A stretch of 64,000 nt of DNA from assembly GCA_038727135.1 (NCBI GenBank), contig JAVYWL010000001.1, positions 416,001-480,000 of the forward strand, in the 5' to 3' direction. Source of the stretch: Candidatus Bathyarchaeia archaeon (GTDB lineage: Archaea > Thermoproteota > Bathyarchaeia > Bathyarchaeales > Bathycorpusculaceae). The position numbers and the translations under genes are program-made. Of this stretch, positions 1,031-14,131 are shown piece by piece (position 1 is the first letter of the stretch; every line of letters begins with the position of its first letter). The notes beneath the pieces are model-generated. The model saw only the letters and a program-made list of their open reading frames with translations. It did no database searches and was not told where the DNA came from.

Positions 1031-2407
1031 CTATAGTACTATTATGACTGAGATGTCGTTAACGTTTGTGCCCGTTGGACCTGTGAAGATTAGGTCGCCG
1101 AGCTGAGAAAAGAAGTTGTAAGAGTTATTGTCGGCTAGGAATTCCTCAGCCTTAAGCCCCGAGGCTTCTGCCTTTACTATTGTTTTTCCGTCGGCTATTG
1201 CTCCTGCAGCGTCTGTTGGTCCATCCACCCCATCAGTGCTTAATGAAGCTATAACGACGCCTTCAAAGCCTTTAATTTTCAGCGAGGCCGCCAATGCTAT
1301 TTCTTGGTTTCTTCCACCCTTGCCTTTTCCAGCAACTGTAACTGTTGTCTCACCGCCAGCCACTATGCCAGCAGGCTTTTTAACTGGGTTGCCGGATGCC
1401 AAAATTTCTCGAGCTAGCGAAGCCAGCATTGTTCCAACATGTCTTGCTTCACCTTCGAGAAGCGATGTTAACAGAAGCGTATTCAAACCTTCTGATTGTA
1501 GGGTTTCACATGCAGTCATGCTTGCGGCTCTGTTGTTTCCGATAACGACGTTGAAAACCTTTTTGAAGATTTCGTCACCAGTCTTCGGCGTTTCTGAGAT
1601 AAGCCCTTTCTCCCCATCCGTTAAGACTTTCCTTATTGATTTTGGGGCTTTATCCCACAAACCATATTTCTTTAAGACGTTTATGGCGTCGCTGAAAGTT
1701 GTGGAGTCGGGGACCGTCGGTCCAGAGGCAATGAAATCCAGCGGGTCGCCTAAAACATCCGATAGGATAAGGTTTAAGATTGTTGCTGGATAAGCCTTCT
1801 TAGCAAGCCATCCGCCCTTAAACTCTGAAATATGCTTCCTAACAGTGTTTATCTCGTTTATTGTGGCGCCACACTTAAGCAGTTCTTCTGTTATCTGCCT
1901 CTTATCAGCTATTGTTATTTCGCCTCTAGGCATGGGCATTAAGCTGGAGCCACCGCCCGAAATCAAGCATATAATTAAGTCTTCTTCTCCAGCTTTTTCG
2001 GCTATTTCTAGCATTTTTCTTGTTCCTTCAACTCCGGATTCGTCGGGGATGGGGTGACTTGCTTCGTGAAGTCTAATTATTCCTGTTTTATGCTTGTTCC
2101 CTTTTGGAACATTTACAAGTCCATCTGTGATTTTGTCACCTAAAACTTCCTCTAAGGCCTCAGCCATTGAGCCGCTTGCCTTCCCTCCACCTATCACATA
2201 TATGTTCTTGAACTTTCCAATGTTGAAAGCTCGCCCGTTAACGTGGAGAATTGAGCCTTCTAGCTTAAGTTTTGATTTAATTAATGATTTTGGGTCTACT
2301 GCTTTTATGGCGGCTTCAAGGCTTTTTAAGGCTAATTCTCTAGCCCTTTTATCGAGAAGTGTCTCGCCGTTCTGAATTAATTGCTCCATATTCTTAATAA
2401 TCGCCAT
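1031..2407 (-). CDS. gck: Glycerate 2-kinase (class II, MOFRL family)
   Basis: GGGKASGSMA, LISGGGSSL, SDVLGDPLDFIASGPT, GGETTV, GGRNQE, TDGVDG, TGTNVND motifs. Confidence 0.92.
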   Translation of the reverse strand: MAIIKNMEQLIQNGETLLDKRARELALKSLEAAIKAVDPKSLIKSKLKLEGSILHVNGRAFNIGKFKNIYVIGGGKASGSMAEALEEVLGDKITDGLVNVPKGNKHKTGIIRLHEASHPIPDESGVEGTRKMLEIAEKAGEEDLIICLISGGGSSLMPMPRGEITIADKRQITEELLKCGATINEINTVRKHISEFKGGWLAKKAYPATILNLILSDVLGDPLDFIASGPTVPDSTTFSDAINVLKKYGLWDKAPKSIRKVLTDGEKGLISETPKTGDEIFKKVFNVVIGNNRAASMTACETLQSEGLNTLLLTSLLEGEARHVGTMLASLAREILASGNPVKKPAGIVAGGETTVTVAGKGKGGRNQEIALAASLKIKGFEGVVIASLSTDGVDGPTDAAGAIADGKTIVKAEASGLKAEEFLADNNSYNFFSQLGDLIFTGPTGTNVNDISVIIVL

Positions 2408-2499
2408 TCGGAGTACCCTTGTAACTTTTAAGGACGGGGAATCGTAAATGTAATAAGTTAAGCGTTAATAAAGTGTTTTGCACCGCGCAGGTGAACATT

Positions 2500-3507
2500 A
2501 TGGCAAAGCCTAAGGTTTACGTAACCCGTGAGCTTCCAGAAAGAGGAATGAAAATAATAAAGGAACGTTTTGACGCTGAAGTTTGGCCGGAGTATGGTCC
2601 GCCGCCGAAGGCGGAAATAATAAGGAAGGCGCGGGATGTTGACGCCTTAGTCACGCTTTTGTCGGATAAGATTGATGCTGAAGTTTTTGATGCTGCGCCG
2701 AAATTGAAAATTGTCGCTCAGATGGCTGTTGGCTTTGATAACATAGATGTTGCTGAAGCCACAAAGAGGGGCATATATGTGACGAACACCCCTGGCGTTT
2801 TAACAGAAACTACAGCGGATTTTGCTTGGGCTTTGTTGATGGCTGTTGCGAGGCGGGTTGTTGAGGCAGACAAATATGTTCGCACAGGACAATGGAAGGT
2901 TAGCTGGCACCCAAGCATGCTTCTAGGCAGAGATGTTTACGGCGCAACACTTGGCATTGTAGGTGCTGGCAGAATAGGAACGGCAGTCGCGAGGAGGGCA
3001 AAAGGCTTCAACATGAGGATTCTCTATTATGATGTTGTGCCTATGCCGCCAGAAGTAGAGAAGGAGTTGGGCGCGAAACGTGTGGATTTGGACACGCTTC
3101 TAAGGGAATCCGACTTTGTCAGCATTCACGTGCCTTTAATGAAGGAGACATATCATCTAATCAACGAAGAGAAGCTTAGGCTGATGAAGAAGACAGCCTA
3201 CCTAATCAACAACTCCAGAGGACCGGTGGTGGATGAAAAAGCCCTTTACAAAGCGTTGAAGGAAGGATGGATTGCTGGCGCAGCCTTAGACGTTTTTGAG
3301 CAGGAGCCCACGCCGGTGGATAATCCCTTGCTTAGGCTTGACAATGTCGTTGTGGCGCCCCACATTTCGAGTGCCAGCTATGAAACCCGCTCAAGGATGG
3401 CTGAGATGGTTGCGGAAAATTTGGTTGCCTTCTTTGAGGGAAAAACTCCGCCGAACCTCGTTAATCCAGACGTTGTTAAGGTACGCCCGTTATCCAAGCT
3501 CTTTTAA
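2500..3507 (+). CDS. gyaR: Glyoxylate/hydroxypyruvate reductase (D-2-hydroxyacid dehydrogenase)
   Basis: [52 protein letters not shown]; ATG at 2500 follows an SD-like GGTGA. Confidence 0.9.
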
Positions 3508-3596
3508 ACAATCATTTCACCTTTTTCAACTATAATGGTTAAATATTCCATCCATGTAACTTTAACTTTCAATCCGCCCTTTCAAGACATTGGTGG

Positions 3597-4781
3597 TTGT
3601 TGATGGTTTCCATATTCGCGAAAAGAATGGCGTCCCTCGGAACCGAAACGGCTTTTGAAGTGCTTGCCCGTGCAAAAGCCCTTGAAAGGCAAGGCAAAGA
3701 GATAATCCACTTGGAAATAGGCGAACCGGACTTTGACACGCCTCAAAACATTAAAGAAGCCGCCGTAAAGGCTCTTTATGCTGGCTACACCCACTATGTG
3801 CCAGCGGCTGGCATCCCGGAATTGCGGGAAGCCATAGCCGAGTACATTTCAAAAACTAGGAAAATTCCCGTTGATCCGGAAGAGGTTGTTGTCACACCCG
3901 GAGCTAAGCCAATAATGTTTTTCGCCATACTGGCATGTGTTGAGCGCGGCGATGAGGTCTTATATCCAAATCCAGGTTTTCCAATATACGAGTCCATGAT
4001 AAATTTTGTTGGAGCCAAACCAGTACCCATCCCGCTAAAAGAGGAGAACGACTTCCGACTGGACCACGAGTATGTTAAGGCCAAGATAACCAAAAAGACT
4101 AAAATGATTATTTTGAACTCACCTGAAAACCCAACCGGCGGCGTTTTAACAAAGGAAGATTTGAAGGTTATAGCCGACTGCATATCCAAAAGGGACGACG
4201 TCATAGTGCTTTCAGACGAGATTTACAGCAGAATAATCTATGAGGGAACCCATGAAAGCATCGCCTCGCTTCCGGGAATGAAGGAAAAAACCATAATATT
4301 GGATGGATTTTCGAAAACCTATGCCATGACAGGCTGGAGGCTCGGCTACGGGGTTATGCGAAAAGACCTAGCTGAAAAAATCACGCAGCTGATGATTAAT
4401 TCGAACTCTTGCACGTGCGCTTTTGTCCAAATGGCTGGAGTTGAAGCCCTTAAAGGTCCGCAAGACTCCGTTGACAAAATGGTCGCAGAATTCAAGAAGA
4501 GAAGAGAAATCATCGTTTCCGGCTTGAACAACATTAAGGGCATAACATGCAAAAAGCCTAAGGGGGCCTTCTACGTCTTCCCAAACATAAAGGAGGTTGG
4601 AAAGACAGCCAAAGAATTTTCAGATTATTTGCTCAACGAGGCTGGTGTGGCTGTTCTGCCAGGCACTTCCTTCGGGAAATATGGTGAGGGATATCTACGT
4701 ATATCCTTTGCAAACTCCATTGAGAACATCAAGAAGGCTTTAGACCGCATAAGCAAGGCTATTGAAAAACTGAAAAGTTAA
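3597..4781 (+). CDS. Class I PLP-dependent aminotransferase (aspartate/aromatic type)
   Basis: IGEPDFDTP, NSPENPTG, SDEIY, DGFSKTYAMTGWRLG (PLP lysine), YLRISFA. Confidence 0.92.
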   Translation: MLMVSIFAKRMASLGTETAFEVLARAKALERQGKEIIHLEIGEPDFDTPQNIKEAAVKALYAGYTHYVPAAGIPELREAIAEYISKTRKIPVDPEEVVVTPGAKPIMFFAILACVERGDEVLYPNPGFPIYESMINFVGAKPVPIPLKEENDFRLDHEYVKAKITKKTKMIILNSPENPTGGVLTKEDLKVIADCISKRDDVIVLSDEIYSRIIYEGTHESIASLPGMKEKTIILDGFSKTYAMTGWRLGYGVMRKDLAEKITQLMINSNSCTCAFVQMAGVEALKGPQDSVDKMVAEFKKRREIIVSGLNNIKGITCKKPKGAFYVFPNIKEVGKTAKEFSDYLLNEAGVAVLPGTSFGKYGEGYLRISFANSIENIKKALDRISKAIEKLKS

Positions 4782-7689: not shown

Positions 7690-8085
7690 CTTTTCAACCT
7701 TAATAGTTGCTCCACTTTTTATCTTGCTGAAAAGTTCAAGATTTTTAGTAACTTTGCCTAAAACGTTAACTGGACTATAAGGCTGGGACTCGCCGAAAAA
7801 AATGCATAATGCGCTTCCCATAGGCCAGAAGGCTATTGTGCCTTTTTCAACAGTGCTTTTTGCTTTTTCTTCACCCATTTTCACAGGGATTTCGAAGTAG
7901 ACTTCCTCTTTCCATAGGGCTGTTCTCCCCTCTATTGGTAGTTTTCGAACTATCATGTCCACTGTTCTTGGGGCTAGGTGGCGGACAAGCTCGCCTTCGG
8001 CTTCACCTAACCCCTCAACAATGAATTTTATTTTTACTCTTGAGATTTCGCCCTCTTCATTTCCCATGCGTATGCACTTTCCCAA
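7684..8085 (-). CDS. Cyclophilin-like fold protein (TM1367/DUF369 type)
   Basis: LAPRTV...LPIEG...WKEEVYF...GTIAFWPMGSALCIFFG...SPVNVLGKV. Confidence 0.85.
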   Translation of the reverse strand: MGKCIRMGNEEGEISRVKIKFIVEGLGEAEGELVRHLAPRTVDMIVRKLPIEGRTALWKEEVYFEIPVKMGEEKAKSTVEKGTIAFWPMGSALCIFFGESQPYSPVNVLGKVTKNLELFSKIKSGATIKVEKL

Positions 8086-9394
8086 GAAAGTCTTCTAAAA
8101 TTTGCTCCAAGGACAATGGTCCCAAAACCTTGAGCTCGTACCTCACCCTTACCGTTGGCTTGTTGATTTCCATAACTCTTCTTAGGTCTACTGGTGTTCC
8201 GATGACCACAACGTCGCATGGTGTACGCATAATCGTTTCATTGAGCTCCTCAATCTGCTTTTCTCCATAGCCTAGGGCTGGCAGAACCGCTCCTAGGTGA
8301 GGGTACTTTTCATAAGCCTCCTTTATTGAGCCTACTGCGTATGGCCTTGGGTCGGCTAATTCGCTGGCTCCAAGCTGCTTAGCCAATATCGTCGCTGCAC
8401 CAAATGGCATGTCACCATGAGTTAATGTTGGACCGTCCTCAATCACAAGCACCCGCTTACCCTTAATCAGCTCCGGCTTGTCAGCGATTATTGGCGAAGA
8501 AGCCTCAAGTATAATTGCGTCTGGATTAACCCTCCTTATGTTCTCCTTAACGAGACTGACATTCTTGGGATCTGCGGTGTCAACTTTATTTATTATCACC
8601 ACATTTGCCATTCTGAGGTTGGCTTCTCCGGGATGATATGCAACCTCGTGTCCTGCCCTATGGGGGTCTGCCACAACTATGTGGAGGTCTGGCTTGTAGA
8701 AGGGTATGTCATTGTTTCCCCCGTCCCAAACAATAATGTCTGCTTCTTTTTCGGCTTCCCTTAAAATCCTCTCGTAGTCAACCCCGGCGTATACAACTAC
8801 TCCATTGTCTATGTGAGGTTCATATTCTTCTCTCTCCTCGATGGTGCACTCGTGTCTGTCGAGATCTTCGTAGGAGGCGAAGCGTTGGCACACCTGTTTG
8901 CGCAAGTCGCCATATGGCATTGGATGCCTAACAACCACAACGTTTAAGCCTTTGCCTTTCAGGATTTTGGCTACTTGCCGTGATGTTTGGCTTTTTCCAG
9001 AACCAGTTCTTACAGCGCCAACGGAGATTACAGGAACCTTAGCCTTAAGCATCGTCGTCTTTGGTCCCATAAGCCTAAAGTCTGCGCCGTTTGCCAGCGC
9101 TATTGACGCCTTATGCATAACGTACTCGTGGGAGACGTCGCTGTAGGCGAAAACAACCTGATCGACGTCAAAATCCCTTATTAGCCTTGCAAGCTCTTCT
9201 TCTGGATAAATCGGTATACCATTCGGATAATTTCTGCCAGCCAGTTCCGGCGGATATATTCTTCCCTCTATGCCTGGAATCTGTGTGGCAGTGAAAGCCA
9301 CAACATCGTAGGCATCGTTGTCTCTAAAATAGACGTTAAAATTGTGAAAGTCCCTGCCAGCTGCGCCCATTATAATAACCTTTGTTTTTGCCAT
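8057..9394 (-). CDS. P-loop protein of the cDPG synthetase-like / arginine synthetase (ArcE) family
   Basis: GAAGRDFHNFN, AFTATQIP, RTGSGKSQTSR, RHPMPYGDL, EEREEYEPH, WDGGNND, EDGPTLTHG. Confidence 0.85.
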   Translation of the reverse strand: MAKTKVIIMGAAGRDFHNFNVYFRDNDAYDVVAFTATQIPGIEGRIYPPELAGRNYPNGIPIYPEEELARLIRDFDVDQVVFAYSDVSHEYVMHKASIALANGADFRLMGPKTTMLKAKVPVISVGAVRTGSGKSQTSRQVAKILKGKGLNVVVVRHPMPYGDLRKQVCQRFASYEDLDRHECTIEEREEYEPHIDNGVVVYAGVDYERILREAEKEADIIVWDGGNNDIPFYKPDLHIVVADPHRAGHEVAYHPGEANLRMANVVIINKVDTADPKNVSLVKENIRRVNPDAIILEASSPIIADKPELIKGKRVLVIEDGPTLTHGDMPFGAATILAKQLGASELADPRPYAVGSIKEAYEKYPHLGAVLPALGYGEKQIEELNETIMRTPCDVVVIGTPVDLRRVMEINKPTVRVRYELKVLGPLSLEQILEDFLGKVHTHGK

Positions 9395-9474: not shown

Positions 9475-10584
9475 TCAACGTCGCCCAATCAAACGAGAAA
9501 CAGCCTCGCCTATAAATTCTATCTGCTCCGCCGTAACTCCGGGATGAACTGGCAGAGAAAGCACTTGCTCTGATGCTTTCTCCGTTTCTGGAAGCTTCCT
9601 TTTTCTAAATTTGCGGTAATATGGCATCAAGTGGATGGGCCATGGATAGTAGACTTCGGCGCCTATACCTTTCCTCCTCAAATTTTCAACAACAGCATCA
9701 CGCCTCGCTCTATCCGCATCTTTAATTCTCACCGTGTAGAGATACCAGCTGTTTCTGCAGCCTTCAAGCTCGCATGGAAGCTGAAGGTTTTTAACATCGC
9801 TCAGTTTTGCTGTGAGCCTTTCAGCGTTTTCTCTACGCTTGGCCAGAAAATTGGGCAGCTTCCTTAGCTGTACAATGCCTATTGCTGCTTCAATTTCTGG
9901 CATGCGGTAGTTGTGTCCCAAAAGGACGGACTTGTACTTTTCCTTCTCGCCGTGGCTTCTAATAAGCCTCAAGGTTCCAGCAATTTCATCATCATTTGTG
10001 GTTACCATGCCGCCTTCACCGGTTGTCATATTTTTACTTGCATAGAAACTCCAACATGCAACATCAGCAAAGGAGCCAACTGGCTTCCCTTTATAAACTG
10101 CACCGTGGGCTTGGGCTGCATCCTCAATAACTTTTAACCCGTGTTTGTCGGCTATTTCCCTTATCGGTTTCAGATCCGCTGGAGAACCGTAAAGATCTAC
10201 AGCAATCACAGCTTTAGTCTTCTTTGTTAGCGCTTTTTCAACGGCTTCCGGCGAAACATTATAGGTTTCAGGGTTTATATCTACAAAAACTGGTCTCGCC
10301 CCAGCCAACACAACCGTTTCCGCTGTTGCCACAAAGGTGAAGCTTGGCAAAACCACCTCGTCGCCCTGTTTTACGCCAGCAGCGGCTAAAGCCATGTGCA
10401 AGGCTGCTGTTCCACTGTTTACGGCTATGGCATGCTTCGCCTCAACAAATCTTGCAAACTCTTCTTCAAACTGCTTAACCATTGGTCCAGCGCCAAGCGC
10501 ATGTGTTAGGATGCCGCTTTTCAAAACTTTTGCAACAGCCTCAATTTCTTCTTCGCCTATTTGCGGAGCATTTATCGGAATCAT
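9475..10584 (-). CDS. DegT/DnrJ/EryC1/StrS family sugar aminotransferase
   Basis: NSGTAALH, FTFVATA, EDAAQAHG, SFYASKNMTTGEGG, GHNYRM, LSLPVHP. Confidence 0.93.
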   Translation of the reverse strand: MIPINAPQIGEEEIEAVAKVLKSGILTHALGAGPMVKQFEEEFARFVEAKHAIAVNSGTAALHMALAAAGVKQGDEVVLPSFTFVATAETVVLAGARPVFVDINPETYNVSPEAVEKALTKKTKAVIAVDLYGSPADLKPIREIADKHGLKVIEDAAQAHGAVYKGKPVGSFADVACWSFYASKNMTTGEGGMVTTNDDEIAGTLRLIRSHGEKEKYKSVLLGHNYRMPEIEAAIGIVQLRKLPNFLAKRRENAERLTAKLSDVKNLQLPCELEGCRNSWYLYTVRIKDADRARRDAVVENLRRKGIGAEVYYPWPIHLMPYYRKFRKRKLPETEKASEQVLSLPVHPGVTAEQIEFIGEAVSRLIGRR

Positions 10585-10751
10585 AGCGCATCTTCGCTAT
10601 TATGCTGTTTCCTAAATTTATTAAAACTTGCCAGAAAACATTATGCTCTAGGTCATATTGTAGCTGGCGAGACTTTACAAATGCGATACCCCTCTATAGA
10701 TTTTGCATAGCATAGCTATGAAAAAGAAAATTGTTAGAAACGGATGAGGCA

Positions 10752-11390
10752 TTAGCCGCTGGAATTATTTAAGCTCCTTATTCTGTTGATGAATTCCTCT
10801 CTTTCCTTTTCTACTTCTTTTATTCTCTGTTTTAGGAATTCGAGTTCTTCGGAGATTTCTTCAAGCCAGCCTTTTATGGCTTTCACGCCTTTTTCCGATG
10901 TCATTTCTGCGAGGTATTTGGAAACATCCTGCGGTTTGCGTTTTTCCAGAGCGGTTAGCGGATAGTTGATTTTTGGAGGCTTTAGAAAGGGGAAAAAGTG
11001 TCTTGTAGTTCTTGGTTCCATAAGCTTTCCACTTAGAGCCGCCGTGACCACGTTTTCAGCCGTTATGGGTGAGTTTGAATTTCCAATGTACCGGTGGATG
11101 CGCCTCCTACCGATGCGAATTTGGGGATTTTGAAAAATGTTGACACATAGAACCGGTATTTGTGTGTAGCCCAAGCTTTTTAGGGCGAGCCAACGGTGCA
11201 TACCGTCAAGTATGACATTTGTCTTTTCATCGGCAATTATTGGATATTTTAGAACGCCGTCTCGTAGAATCTCCTTTTTCAGCATCTCCAAATATAGAGG
11301 GGAGCCTTTCTCATGAGGCTTTAATGCGTCAATTGGTAAAAGTACAATTTTGAACGCCTCTGTCTTTTCGGTTTGGGTTGCGGTTGCCAC
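10752..11390 (-). CDS. ParB/Srx-fold protein, SerK-like free serine kinase candidate, with a C-terminal coiled coil
   Basis: LKPHE, PII, ILDGMHRWLALKSLG and PRTTRH match SerK-type motifs; GTG at 11390 is the likely start (track ORF begins at 11453 inside trpB2). Confidence 0.7.
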   Translation of the reverse strand: MATATQTEKTEAFKIVLLPIDALKPHEKGSPLYLEMLKKEILRDGVLKYPIIADEKTNVILDGMHRWLALKSLGYTQIPVLCVNIFQNPQIRIGRRRIHRYIGNSNSPITAENVVTAALSGKLMEPRTTRHFFPFLKPPKINYPLTALEKRKPQDVSKYLAEMTSEKGVKAIKGWLEEISEELEFLKQRIKEVEKEREEFINRIRSLNNSSG

Positions 11391-11412
11391 TTGCCTGTCG
11401 CCCTTAAGGGGG

Positions 11413-12774
11413 TTATTTAACAATTGTTGGAACATCGATTTTTTCCGGCTCATAATCCACCAGTTTTCCTGCCAAGAACTGCTCGTAGGCGCCTAAATCC
11501 AATAGTCCGTGCCCGCTATAGTTCATGGCGATAACCTTCTTCTCACCAGTTTTTCGACACCGCAAGGCTTCGTCTATAACGAATTTCAGGCTGTGGGCTG
11601 TTTCAGGTGCTATTATTAGGCCTTCTGCTTGAGCTAGAATTTGGGCTGCTTGGAAGACTTCAGTTTGGTGGTAGGCAACTGAACGCATATACCCCCTATG
11701 GATTAGATATGATATTGAGGGTGCCATTCCATGGTATCTTAAGCCTCCAGCATGGATTGGGGGGCATGCGTAGCCGTGTCCTATTGTGAGCATTTTAAGC
11801 AGTGGTGTCATTTCAGCCGTGTCGCCGAAATCGTATGTGTAAACTCCTTTGGTTGTGTGGGGAACAGCCTTAGACTCGCAAGCCACGAACTCTGTTTCAG
11901 TTTTGCCCTTAAGCTTGTCCATCATGAACGGGTAGCAGAAGCCGGCATAGTTGGAGCCCCCGCCTATGCATCCGCAAACGATATCCGGGTACTCGCCAAT
12001 GATTTCAAACTGTTTTTTAGCTTCTAAGCCTATTATGGTCTGGTGCAACAGCACATGGTTTAGAACTGAACCCAAAGAATACCTCGTGTCCTCATGTGTC
12101 ATCGTGTCTTCTATGGCTTCACTTATGGCGATTCCCAGCGTTCCCGGATGGTTGGGGTTTTCCTTCAAGAGCTTTCTGCCAAAGTTCGTCTGGTCGCTTG
12201 GTGAAGGAAACATCTCAGCGCCATATAACTGTGCTATGGTTCTTCTTCCGGGCTTCTGCTGGTAGCTAACGCGAACCATGTATATGCGGCACTTTAAACC
12301 GAAAATTGTGCAAGCAAAGGCTAATGCAGTGCCCCACTGTCCAGCACCTGTTTCTGTCACAAGCCTTTTTATGCCTTGTTCCTTGTTGTAGTAGGCTTGG
12401 GCTATAGCAGTATTCGTCTTGTGGCTTCCAGTTGGACTAAAATTCTCGCATTTAAAGTATATCTTTGCCGGAGTTTTCAGAAACTTTTCAAGCCTCCTAG
12501 CCCTATAAAGCGGCGTTGGACGGGGCAATCGCAAATAAGCGTCTAAAACCTCTTCTGGAATTTTTATGAAGCGCTCTGTGGAAACCTCTTGCCTAATCAG
12601 CTCCTTTGCAAATATTCTCTCCAGGAGTTTTGGGTCTATGGGTTTTAGGGTTGTGGGATCCAACGGCGGCGGAAGCGGCTCTGGCAGGTCTGCCTGAATG
12701 TTGTACCACGCGGTGGGGATTTCATCAGCGCCTAGCATTGTGAAGTGTTCGCTTTTCTGAACTTTAAAGTTCAT
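11413..12774 (-). CDS. trpB2: Tryptophan synthase beta chain, TrpB2 type
   Basis: WYNIQADLP, PTGSHKTNTA (PLP Lys), TETGAGQWG, SLGSVLNHV, HAGGLRYHG, SGHGLLDL. Confidence 0.95.
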   Translation of the reverse strand: MNFKVQKSEHFTMLGADEIPTAWYNIQADLPEPLPPPLDPTTLKPIDPKLLERIFAKELIRQEVSTERFIKIPEEVLDAYLRLPRPTPLYRARRLEKFLKTPAKIYFKCENFSPTGSHKTNTAIAQAYYNKEQGIKRLVTETGAGQWGTALAFACTIFGLKCRIYMVRVSYQQKPGRRTIAQLYGAEMFPSPSDQTNFGRKLLKENPNHPGTLGIAISEAIEDTMTHEDTRYSLGSVLNHVLLHQTIIGLEAKKQFEIIGEYPDIVCGCIGGGSNYAGFCYPFMMDKLKGKTETEFVACESKAVPHTTKGVYTYDFGDTAEMTPLLKMLTIGHGYACPPIHAGGLRYHGMAPSISYLIHRGYMRSVAYHQTEVFQAAQILAQAEGLIIAPETAHSLKFVIDEALRCRKTGEKKVIAMNYSGHGLLDLGAYEQFLAGKLVDYEPEKIDVPTIVK

Positions 12775-12787
12775 TATTATTCACCTA

Positions 12788-12860
12788 TGTACATTTTAAT
12801 ACGTTTAAGCACGTAATAAAACATTGAACATATTTATACTTTATTGCACAAAAAAGTACA
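12788..12860. promoter_or_regulatory. Four TRP-box-like hexamers in the divergent trpB2/trpY promoter region
   Basis: TGTACA 12788-12793, TGAACA 12825-12830, TGCACA 12845-12850, AGTACA 12855-12860; TATA-like TTTATA at about 12833-12838. Confidence 0.75.
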
Positions 12861-12876
12861 TTAGGCAGACAGAAAC

Positions 12877-13380
12877 ATGTGGAACACGATAAAAAAGCAT
12901 TTCGAAAACTATCCAGAACGCCTAAAAGTAGCCAGAGTCCTCGTGGAAAATGGACTGAGCATAAAAAATGGAAAAATATACTTGAACGAGATAGAGATTC
13001 CGCCAACACGAATAGCAAGAGTGACAGGAGTAGACAGGAGAACAGTAAACGAAACAATAAACACCATAAGAGCGAACCGCGAACTCCGCCTAATATTCGA
13101 AGGCTTAAGGCCAGCGGGACATTCCCTAAAAGAAATAGCAAAACATTTGGAACTCGGCGTGGTAGAAATAACTCCAGTGGATGCCAGAATACCAGGCATA
13201 TTGGCAAATTCAGCCATGATACTGGCAAAAAACGGCCTAAGTATAAGACAGGCAATAGTTGACGACCCAGAACTCTCGCCAGAACCAAAGCTAACACTTA
13301 TTGTAGAGAAAAAGGTTCCAGGCGAACTTATCCCAGAATTCCTGAAAGTTAAGGGAGTTGCCAAAGTATCAATTTATTAA
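12877..13380 (+). CDS. trpY: TrpY-like tryptophan-responsive regulator (HTH + ACT, COG2150 type)
   Basis: IEIPPTRIARVTGVDRRTV HTH and PGILA...ISIRQAIVDDPE-like ACT segment; divergent from trpB2 across TRP boxes. Confidence 0.8.
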   Translation: MWNTIKKHFENYPERLKVARVLVENGLSIKNGKIYLNEIEIPPTRIARVTGVDRRTVNETINTIRANRELRLIFEGLRPAGHSLKEIAKHLELGVVEITPVDARIPGILANSAMILAKNGLSIRQAIVDDPELSPEPKLTLIVEKKVPGELIPEFLKVKGVAKVSIY

Positions 13381-13414: not shown

Positions 13415-14131
13415 GTGCGAAGTCAAAAAATATATGCTGCTTTTAGCAAAATTGTCATGATAATGTTGATGGATATCGTAAAAAGGTTAAGCATTGGATG
13501 TTTATTTCTTATGGTAGCATTTTTCCCGTTAGTGGAGACAGCCTCCAATTTTCCTGAAAATGAACCATGTTTGGTGAAATTTAAATACGTTAATGGACAA
13601 TGGTTTGTAGACGATGAAATTCTAAAGCTTGTTACCCCCTTGCATTTTGAGGGTCCTATAATCCCAATAAGAATTGTTGATTTGGGGAACTTTTTCAAAG
13701 TTCTTGAAGAAGAAAAAACTCAACCTGTTCAAATCAAAATGAAGGCTGAAGGGCCATTTCCATCTAACATTACATTAGAGTTTAAGGGCGAAAAAGCCGT
13801 TCTGATACCTGAAATTATTAAAATAGAAATACCAATTAACGGCACAATTCTACTAGGCTATGCATATAGGTACGGGCCTTATGGAGGAGGCTGCCTTATA
13901 GGAATTCAGATTTCAGTAACATGGACCCCAGATGACCAAGTGCTTTACATTGTTTGTTACGATGCTACCACTGGAGAAGGCCGACTCCACAGAGCTACCG
14001 ATGGTCATGGCTTCGTTATTTTTGACACAAATCCGACAAGAGAATACTATGTTTTAATAGGAAACCCTTCAGAGGAAAATATAGAAGCGATAACTTACAG
14101 CGGTATTATAACCTTATATTACAGACCATAA
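13415..14131 (+). CDS. Hypothetical secreted protein
   Basis: Hydrophobic N-terminal segment (LSIGCLFLMVAFFPLVETA) followed by a beta-rich domain; true start probably an ATG near 13457-13469. Confidence 0.65.
   Translation: MRSQKIYAAFSKIVMIMLMDIVKRLSIGCLFLMVAFFPLVETASNFPENEPCLVKFKYVNGQWFVDDEILKLVTPLHFEGPIIPIRIVDLGNFFKVLEEEKTQPVQIKMKAEGPFPSNITLEFKGEKAVLIPEIIKIEIPINGTILLGYAYRYGPYGGGCLIGIQISVTWTPDDQVLYIVCYDATTGEGRLHRATDGHGFVIFDTNPTREYYVLIGNPSEENIEAITYSGIITLYYRP

Follow-up and report, generated by a model that had tools for sequence, protein, structure and literature searches.

Free-serine kinases with a ParB/Srx fold are described from archaea and staphylococci. SerK of Thermococcus kodakarensis (TK0378; PDB 5x0b-5x0k) is an ADP-dependent kinase of free L-serine whose product, O-phospho-L-serine (OPS), enters cysteine synthesis (PMC5120207), and its clear homologues were reported there as limited to Thermococcales and Desulfurococcales, in four genera (Makino et al., 2016, PMC5120207). 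SbnI of Staphylococcus is described as a ParB/Srx-fold kinase supplying OPS to SbnA, a pyridoxal 5'-phosphate (PLP) enzyme of fold type II (PMC12704722). TrpB2 enzymes are reported to be OPS-dependent and to bind indole with high affinity (PMC11917138, citing Busch et al., 2014), and in the survey of Merkl (2007, PMC1854888) no neighbourhood of trpB2 was found to be conserved except within trp operons. What TrpB2 does physiologically and where its preferred substrate comes from have been open questions since the enzyme was described. Pyrococcus horikoshii has retained trpB2 though every other trp gene has been lost. Here we analyse a 64,000-nucleotide (nt) stretch of a Bathyarchaeia genome (the window), in which trpB2 and a gene for a short kinase-like protein related to SerK and SbnI lie on the minus strand, with a trpY gene on the plus strand. 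We consider it rather probable that this locus encodes a tryptophan-regulated indole-salvage pair, leading from serine through OPS to tryptophan, in an archaeon without the rest of the trp pathway.

The trpB2 gene (11413..12774, minus strand; open reading frame (ORF) and NCBIfam) encodes a stand-alone TrpB-like PLP enzyme of 453 amino acids (aa). As stated in the initial annotation of this DNA, it is closely followed on the same strand by a ParB/Srx-fold gene (10752..11390; ORF, NCBIfam, PDB and AlphaFold2 model), with 22 nt between the trpB2 stop codon and the GTG start at 11390 of the short, SerK/SbnI-like 212-aa protein. The longest ORF of the kinase-like gene opens at ATG 11453, overlapping trpB2 and giving a 233-aa form; the GTG start yields a protein that agrees, in N-terminus and in length, with homologues of 207-217 aa. 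The divergent TrpY-like gene, also part of the initial annotation, was found at 12877..13380 on the plus strand, encoding a 167-aa TrpY-family regulator (NF053754, 196 bits), and the 102-bp spacer between trpB2 and trpY (12775..12876, strandless) forms the divergent promoter region.

In the proposed route, the 212-aa enzyme would phosphorylate free L-serine to OPS in a nucleotide-dependent reaction with Glu27 acting as the base, TrpB2 would join OPS to indole to give L-tryptophan, and TrpY would probably close both divergent promoters when tryptophan is plentiful. The logic of such a pair is that of SerK/CysK and SbnI/SbnA, which likewise couple a ParB/Srx-fold kinase to a fold-type-II PLP enzyme that receives its OPS. 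Serine as the substrate, the nucleotide donor, a preference for OPS on the part of this TrpB2 and tryptophan-dependent repression are putative elements of the route.

Among solved structures, the kinase-like protein is nearest to SerK and SbnI in sequence and in predicted fold. Its best NCBIfam matches are SerK NF053625 (55.7 bits) and SbnI NF033589 (32.3 bits), and in a phmmer search of the PDB only SerK, PF0380 (the SerK orthologue of P. furiosus) and SbnI were matched at E <1e-6 (best 5x0b, 7e-9). The alignment with SerK comprises two stretches, numbered here on the 233-aa form: residues 33-114 against SerK 15-99, holding KPHE and DGxHRW, and residues 131-166 against SerK 204-238, holding P[KR]TTRH. 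Between them, about 16 residues stand where SerK has about 100 (approximately 100-203), in agreement with the earlier remark that the protein is shorter in mid-chain than T. kodakarensis SerK. The three motifs named in the initial annotation were all located in the gene, on the minus strand: LKPHE (11310..11324), DGMHRW (11190..11207), the counterpart of DGHHRW in SerK, and PRTTRH (10998..11015), the counterpart of PKTTRH at residues ~220-225 near the C-terminus of SerK. Glu27 of the first motif falls in the same column as the catalytic Glu30 of SerK, which has been mutated in the structures 5x0e and 5x0j; the E30A and E30Q chains carry A or Q there. Glu27 is invariant in alignments A1, A2, A3 and A5, as are D62, G63 and R66 of DGMHRW and R130 and H131 of PRTTRH in A1 and A5; across 41, 35 and 36 aligned relatives the KPHE glutamate, DGxHRW and P[KR]TTRH show little or no variation. 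In the ParB/Srx fold, DGMHRW would be the loop that binds nucleotide or phosphate.

An AlphaFold2 model derived from 41 sequences (predicted local distance difference test 91.3, predicted template modelling score 0.84) placed nine SerK, PF0380 and SbnI entries at the top of a Foldseek search (E 9e-9 to 2e-7). In VIA comparisons the model gave Z 17.1 with PF0380 (1vk1; root-mean-square deviation (rmsd) 1.4 A over 124 residues), Z 15.9 with SerK bound to phosphoserine and AMP (5x0j; rmsd 1.9 A over 126 residues) and Z 11.8-14.6 with SbnI entries (14.6 for 5uje), whereas sulfiredoxin, ParB, Noc, KorB and PadC all remained at Z <=7.2. Sulfiredoxin (Z 6.0-7.2), a compact fold of about 100 aa that acts on peroxiredoxin, has the core fold alone in common with the model. 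With SerK, 124-139 residues out of about 240 were aligned; across SerK and PF0380 together (Z 12.6-17.1), identity over the structurally aligned positions is about 27-30%, and the shared features are the ParB/Srx-fold core, the KPHE glutamate, DGxHRW and P[KR]TTRH. For this gene, of the kind that according to the initial annotation is usually labelled ParB-like nuclease, SerK and SbnI are nearest both by sequence and by fold. A CTP-dependent DNA clamp of ParB/Noc type was considered and rejected: ParB_N PF02195 scored 18.3 bits, under the Pfam cut-off of 26.3, the Pfam search found no helix-turn-helix (HTH) or DNA-binding domain, and Z values against ParB and Noc structures were <=7.0, against 12-17 for the serine kinases.

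A long C-terminal helix of coiled-coil-like character, which the initial annotation had also noticed, spans residues 165-210 (46 residues) in the model according to DSSP (10761..10898, minus strand). Bathyarchaeia and the relatives fused to nucleotidyltransferases share this conserved helix, which is missing from SerK and from 'mini' relatives of 125-150 aa. On sequence and model, the 212-aa protein is best described as a free-serine-kinase relative that has been shortened and carries an added coiled-coil-like tail, and not as a ParB. It differs from SerK in its short middle, in this helix and in having TrpB2 instead of CysK as its partner. The tail may anchor the kinase so that OPS is delivered locally; a direct complex with TrpB2 is unsupported, the predictions from alignments of 39 rows (A4) for TrpB2 and 36 rows (A5) for the kinase-like protein having scored 0.00 in both runs, which were made without controls and decide neither way. 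As a separate observation, the N-terminal ~75 residues of the Aeropyrum pernix O-phosphoserine sulfhydrylase (1wkv, 3vsc, 6l0q) gave a weak fold match to the model (Z 4.9-5.3), which could be fortuitous or else the remnant of a fusion between a SerK-like domain and an enzyme that uses OPS.

The identity of the partner enzyme is clear from its profile and chain matches. The 453-aa protein scored 700.6 bits against NF009057 (cut-off 366) and 684.8 bits against TIGR01415 (cut-off 518.85) in NCBIfam, and 158 bits against the TrpB1 profile TIGR00263, below its cut-off of 392. Its best PDB matches, all named tryptophan synthase beta, were 6hul (512.7 bits), 4qys (471.1) and 6hte (470.5), while TrpB1 chains reached at most 149 bits. 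These scores clearly mark it as a full member of TrpB2, alongside the known enzymes (S. solfataricus 4qys, 6hte, 6hul; T. maritima), and as distinct from TrpB1.

The arrangement of the three genes is strictly kept among relatives. A scan of one genome per species gave 80 loci, of which 74 were of Bathyarchaeia type (one record titled Acidiferrales and two 'uncultured archaeon' among them) and six were weaker matches. In all 74 Bathyarchaeia-type loci, with kinase identities from 96% to 54%, trpB2 lies immediately upstream on the same strand, so the adjacency on which the initial annotation had built is conserved; the flanks of the six weaker matches (Thermofilaceae, Thermoprotei, Thermoplasmata) hold neither trpB2 nor trpY. 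Of 71 loci in which the gap between trpB2 and the kinase gene could be measured, 67 have one of no more than about 31 nt, and a divergent TrpY is present in each of the 61 loci whose upstream flank offers 650 nt or more (13 loci lacked such room). A conserved trpB2 neighbourhood therefore exists in Bathyarchaeia, in contrast to the survey of Merkl (2007). Of 66 loci with room downstream, 44 have a DegT-type aminotransferase no more than 300 nt away, nine have it at a greater distance and 13 lack it; this link is looser than that among TrpY, trpB2 and the kinase gene, so the three-gene core is tighter than general synteny. In the window the module is followed, on the minus strand, by a DegT/DnrJ-type aminotransferase (9475..10584) and a 445-aa P-loop protein (8057..9394), an order common in relatives; the latter weakly matched the cyclic 2,3-diphosphoglycerate synthetase of PDB 9sxb (E 3.5e-5). 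On the other side, a 238-aa ORF beside trpY (13415..14131, plus strand) has no Pfam or NCBIfam match and recurs only in the near-identical locus L069, not in 73 other related loci.

The metabolic setting of the genome (1.55 Mb, 94.7% complete) is consistent with salvage. The window holds neither trpA nor further trp genes, as already stated in the initial annotation, and trpA, trpB1, trpC and trpD were likewise not found over cut-offs in the whole genome, while 14 of 14 control genomes gave matches. In a class sample of 101 genomes, nine had a kinase-like match at E <=1e-20, seven of these being the long form; TrpA was found over cut-off in none of these seven and in 37 of the 94 others, a comparison among kin and not among independent genomes, so that the joint occurrence of the long form and TrpA absence is only suggestive. 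No SerB or SepRS was found over cut-offs in the genome, in which a weak SerC-like match and three short 2-hydroxyacid dehydrogenases occur: one a glyoxylate reductase over cut-off, the other two resembling phosphoglycerate dehydrogenase (PGDH) but below cut-offs. About 6 kb from the module, at 1031..4781 of the window, lie genes for a glycerate 2-kinase-like protein (minus strand), a glyoxylate/hydroxypyruvate reductase (545.7 bits, cut-off 455) and a class-I aminotransferase, a trio corresponding to enzymes of the non-phosphorylated route through glycerate, hydroxypyruvate and serine. If that route is the main serine source, OPS would not be formed as a free intermediate.

The regulator covers all 163 of 163 positions of the TrpY profile NF053754 and exceeds its cut-off of 180 bits. 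The spacer contains GTACAT (12856..12861), TGTACA (12788..12793) and a TATA-like block (12827..12843), the last near-invariant. A GTAC core about 17 nt from the trpY start occurs in 65 of 67 loci and ATGTAC in 60, and AAAGTATAAATAT hexamers are present in the spacer of 66-67 of the 67. These conserved GTAC-core elements are candidate TrpY boxes, and they resemble the TRP box. The TrpY of Methanothermobacter thermautotrophicus offers a parallel: as described there for trpY-trpE (PMC6737238), the present regulator gene is divergent from its presumed target, with short conserved boxes in overlapping promoters. The two differ in that the target there is trpEGCFBAD, whereas here it would be trpB2 and the kinase-like gene, with the response to tryptophan predicted.

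The locus is transcribed in situ in the expected orientation. Metatranscriptome run X7 contributed 39 reads at >=92% identity, with the first mate on the plus strand over the kinase-like gene and trpB2 and on the minus strand over trpY, which fits divergent genes in a stranded library. Depth was 3.4-5.5 and unbroken over the 22-nt junction between trpB2 and the kinase gene, and the six reads that span it (11184-11556) may all derive from a single fragment. With about 3% of each run read, X5 and X6 yielded 0 reads, and run X1 is probably DNA. At its low coverage, X7 had a depth of 0 below 10828. A T-rich run, TTTTCTTTTT (10721..10730, minus strand), 22-31 nt past the stop codon of the kinase-like gene, is a candidate archaeal terminator of the two-gene operon.

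Beyond this clade, 615 close relatives and 1238 representative relatives (E <=0.001) were collected. Many of the representatives are mini forms that align over residues 14-150, end near 150 and keep HE, DGHHR and PKT[TS][RK]H. Their neighbourhoods were surveyed in the best 80 loci retrieved with a 10-sequence alignment (A3), from many bacterial and archaeal phyla. TrpB2 was adjacent in 11, in either gene order, TrpA and TrpB1 were nearby in six, a CysK/M-like PLP enzyme was adjacent in 24 (16 of them close Caldiserica kin), and in 22 the mini form preceded GcvH and GcvP, in some of these along with an ACT protein and a dehydrogenase of 2-hydroxyacids; 17 had none of these neighbours, so that 63 of the 80 best loci place the mini form beside TrpB2, TrpBA, CysK/M-like or glycine-cleavage genes. 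The 22 gcvH/gcvP loci (L092-L164) belong to Thermodesulfobacteriota and related taxa, some with a glyoxylate-reductase/PGDH-like dehydrogenase and an ACT-domain gene upstream, and their mini forms may serve in a serine/glycine catabolic or serB-replacing context. A search of six TrpB2 and kinase loci (five Bacillota, one Patescibacteria) at Rfam gathering thresholds detected no T-box, the only matches being to part of a group II intron and to a tRNA.

A quick tree of 81 rows and 132 columns (7 of 88 rows having been dropped for stops in translation) left 39 of 78 inner branches open. In this poorly resolved tree, 14 of 19 TrpB2-linked kinases fall, with three unlinked ones, in one 17-row group (Shimodaira-Hasegawa-like approximate likelihood-ratio test 83), which takes in Bathyarchaeia, other Thermoproteota, Nitrososphaerota and Bacillota. 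The kinase-TrpB2 pairing thus reaches across bacteria and archaea, and the tree is compatible with one or several origins.

The same genome also encodes a 574-aa fusion (G000:C4:101791-103515; L088:5792-7516, plus strand) of a kinase-like domain, a degenerate second copy (residues ~162-266) and a CysK/CysM-like PLP domain (TIGR01136, 192 bits). Its kinase-like domain is 38% identical to the 212-aa protein over residues 14-171 and carries the motifs HE, DGEHRF and PPKTTCH; the protein looks like an enzyme that would convert serine through OPS to cysteine within a single chain. Other relatives with the C-terminal helix (P0126, P0128, P0132, P0135, P0138 and P0145, 30-38% identical over the full length including this helix) are fused to an NMNAT/PPAT-like cytidylyltransferase-fold domain at either end, a sugar-phosphate nucleotidyltransferase or an Asn-synthase-like domain; for the P0128-type nucleotidyltransferase fusion, one genome locus was found (L178:2143-3111). 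Such fusions suggest enzymes that combine a kinase with nucleotidyl activation.

Several points weigh against the proposed route from serine to tryptophan. The profile and structure comparison of 10752..11390 suggested in the initial annotation confirmed SerK and SbnI as the nearest matches, with the catalytic glutamate kept, but the curated cut-offs were missed: the SerK equivalog threshold of 380 bits is far from the 55.7 bits obtained over two short stretches, and the SbnI threshold of 350 bits from the 32.3 bits confined to the N-terminal 70 residues, so that the protein is a relative of these families and no member. The ~100 absent residues make up much of the second domain of SerK, and substrate or donor binding may therefore differ; moreover, an archaeal SerK-like protein is reported to bind CTP, not ATP (PMC12704722). 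Outside Bathyarchaeia, the closest full-length relatives are fused to other domains with no TrpB2 pairing, an architecture that would suit a small-molecule kinase not necessarily specific for serine, and with nucleotidyltransferases as partners serine as the substrate stays a matter of inference. Neither TrpB2 nor TrpB1 is near 63 of the 80 best mini-form loci. OPS might also come from 3-phosphoglycerate, given the PGDH-like pair and the weak SerC-like match, which leaves the need for a dedicated kinase unproven. Another TrpB2 of the genome, a paralogue of 434 aa that is 55% identical (G000:C1:615006-616310, L087:7006-8310), has neither a kinase neighbour nor TrpY nearby and is flanked by a FEN1-type nuclease and a fragment of a protein-isoaspartate methyltransferase. 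Membership of the TrpY family does not by itself imply control by tryptophan, because the T. kodakarensis homologue is reported to leave trp genes unregulated (PMC6737238). The RNA support is thin, with reads in one of three raw RNA runs and a junction perhaps covered by a single molecule.

On a rival reading, the protein would be a small-molecule kinase of SerK/SbnI type acting on a substrate other than L-serine, perhaps L-threonine, homoserine, glycerate or another hydroxy compound, and the product of its TrpB2 partner would then be an analogue of tryptophan, or the leaving group a different one. The absence of the SerK middle domain, the missed family cut-offs and the nucleotidyltransferase fusions of full-length relatives, which imply phospho-esters that are then nucleotidylated, all favour such an acceptor; we nevertheless regard it as unlikely, given that P[KR]TTRH and KPHE are shared with SerK and invariant, that 63 of the 80 best mini-form loci lie beside enzymes of serine, glycine, cysteine or tryptophan metabolism, and that the regulator belongs to the TrpY family. 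The setting of the 22 mini-form loci beside dehydrogenase and glycine-cleavage genes, together with the PGDH-like genes and the lack of SerB over cut-off in this genome, would also suit an enzyme that runs in reverse or balances OPS and serine, delivering serine instead of OPS. Precedent comes from the DUF1015 'SerBK' proteins, which are structurally SbnI-like, reported to complement serB (PMC13759103) and proposed to stand in for phosphoserine phosphatase. A general serine enzyme would, however, be unexpected in a TrpY-linked operon strictly tied to trpB2, and the reverse reaction is described as thermodynamically unfavourable (PMC13759103), which makes a serine supplier distinctly improbable. 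DUF1015 'SerBK' (GapMind 2026, PMC13759103) is a remote structural relative of SbnI with a gene context in serine metabolism, but larger and a separate family, to which one relative of the 212-aa protein (P0151) gave a faint match of 15.8 bits.

The long helix, typical of oligomerising proteins, raises the question of a non-catalytic partner, which would regulate or scaffold TrpB2 as a subunit in place of TrpA or else act as a DNA-binding co-regulator of SbnI/ParB kind. NCBIfam does label SbnI a bifunctional regulator, and the ParB fold is reported to serve widely as a switch (PMC12704722); yet the catalytic-site motifs are all strictly conserved, the Pfam search gave no HTH or DNA-binding domain, and mini forms pair with TrpB2 despite having no helix, so that we give this explanation little credence. 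Finally, the adjacency could be inherited synteny with no functional tie, since the wider block with the DegT aminotransferase and the 445-aa P-loop protein is also often kept. That is very improbable in view of the 22 of 66 loci in which the pair is intact while DegT is displaced or absent, the recurrence of the pair, with either gene first, in Bacillota, Patescibacteria, Nitrososphaerota and other Thermoproteota, the gap of just 22 nt and the RNA continuous over the junction.

A close parallel to the favoured kinase-TrpB2 pair is SbnI-SbnA, in which a free serine kinase is likewise encoded beside an OPS-using fold-type-II PLP enzyme; SbnI differs in its length (~254 aa), in its naming as a bifunctional regulator and in serving the siderophore staphyloferrin B, whereas the 212-aa protein would feed tryptophan synthesis. 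The literature searched contained no account of a pairing between TrpB2 and a serine kinase, in line with the initial annotation, which knew of none. What the present DNA contributes is the long form with its coiled coil, a TrpY/trpB2/kinase unit strictly kept in Bathyarchaeia that have no trp operon, the CysK/M fusion paralogue, the nucleotidyltransferase-fused relatives and the in-situ RNA.

A wider proposal, to which we lend somewhat less than even confidence, is that mini-SerK kinases are widespread and unrecognised serine activators, associated as neighbours or fusions with fold-type-II PLP beta-replacement enzymes (TrpB2, CysK/M-like), and that in Bathyarchaeia without a trp operon the TrpY-controlled kinase-TrpB2 pair would be the sole route to tryptophan, fed by environmental indole. 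If true, it would account for the survival of TrpB2 through reductive evolution and for the source of its phosphoserine. The route itself would be directly testable as a two-enzyme conversion of serine and indole to tryptophan via phosphoserine. Hundreds of proteins now labelled 'ParB N-terminal domain', among the 615 close and 1238 representative relatives, would have to be re-annotated, and the family of free serine kinases would widen far past four archaeal genera and the staphylococci. For the uncultured Bathyarchaeia, such a pair would bear on their dependence on the indole of their neighbours.

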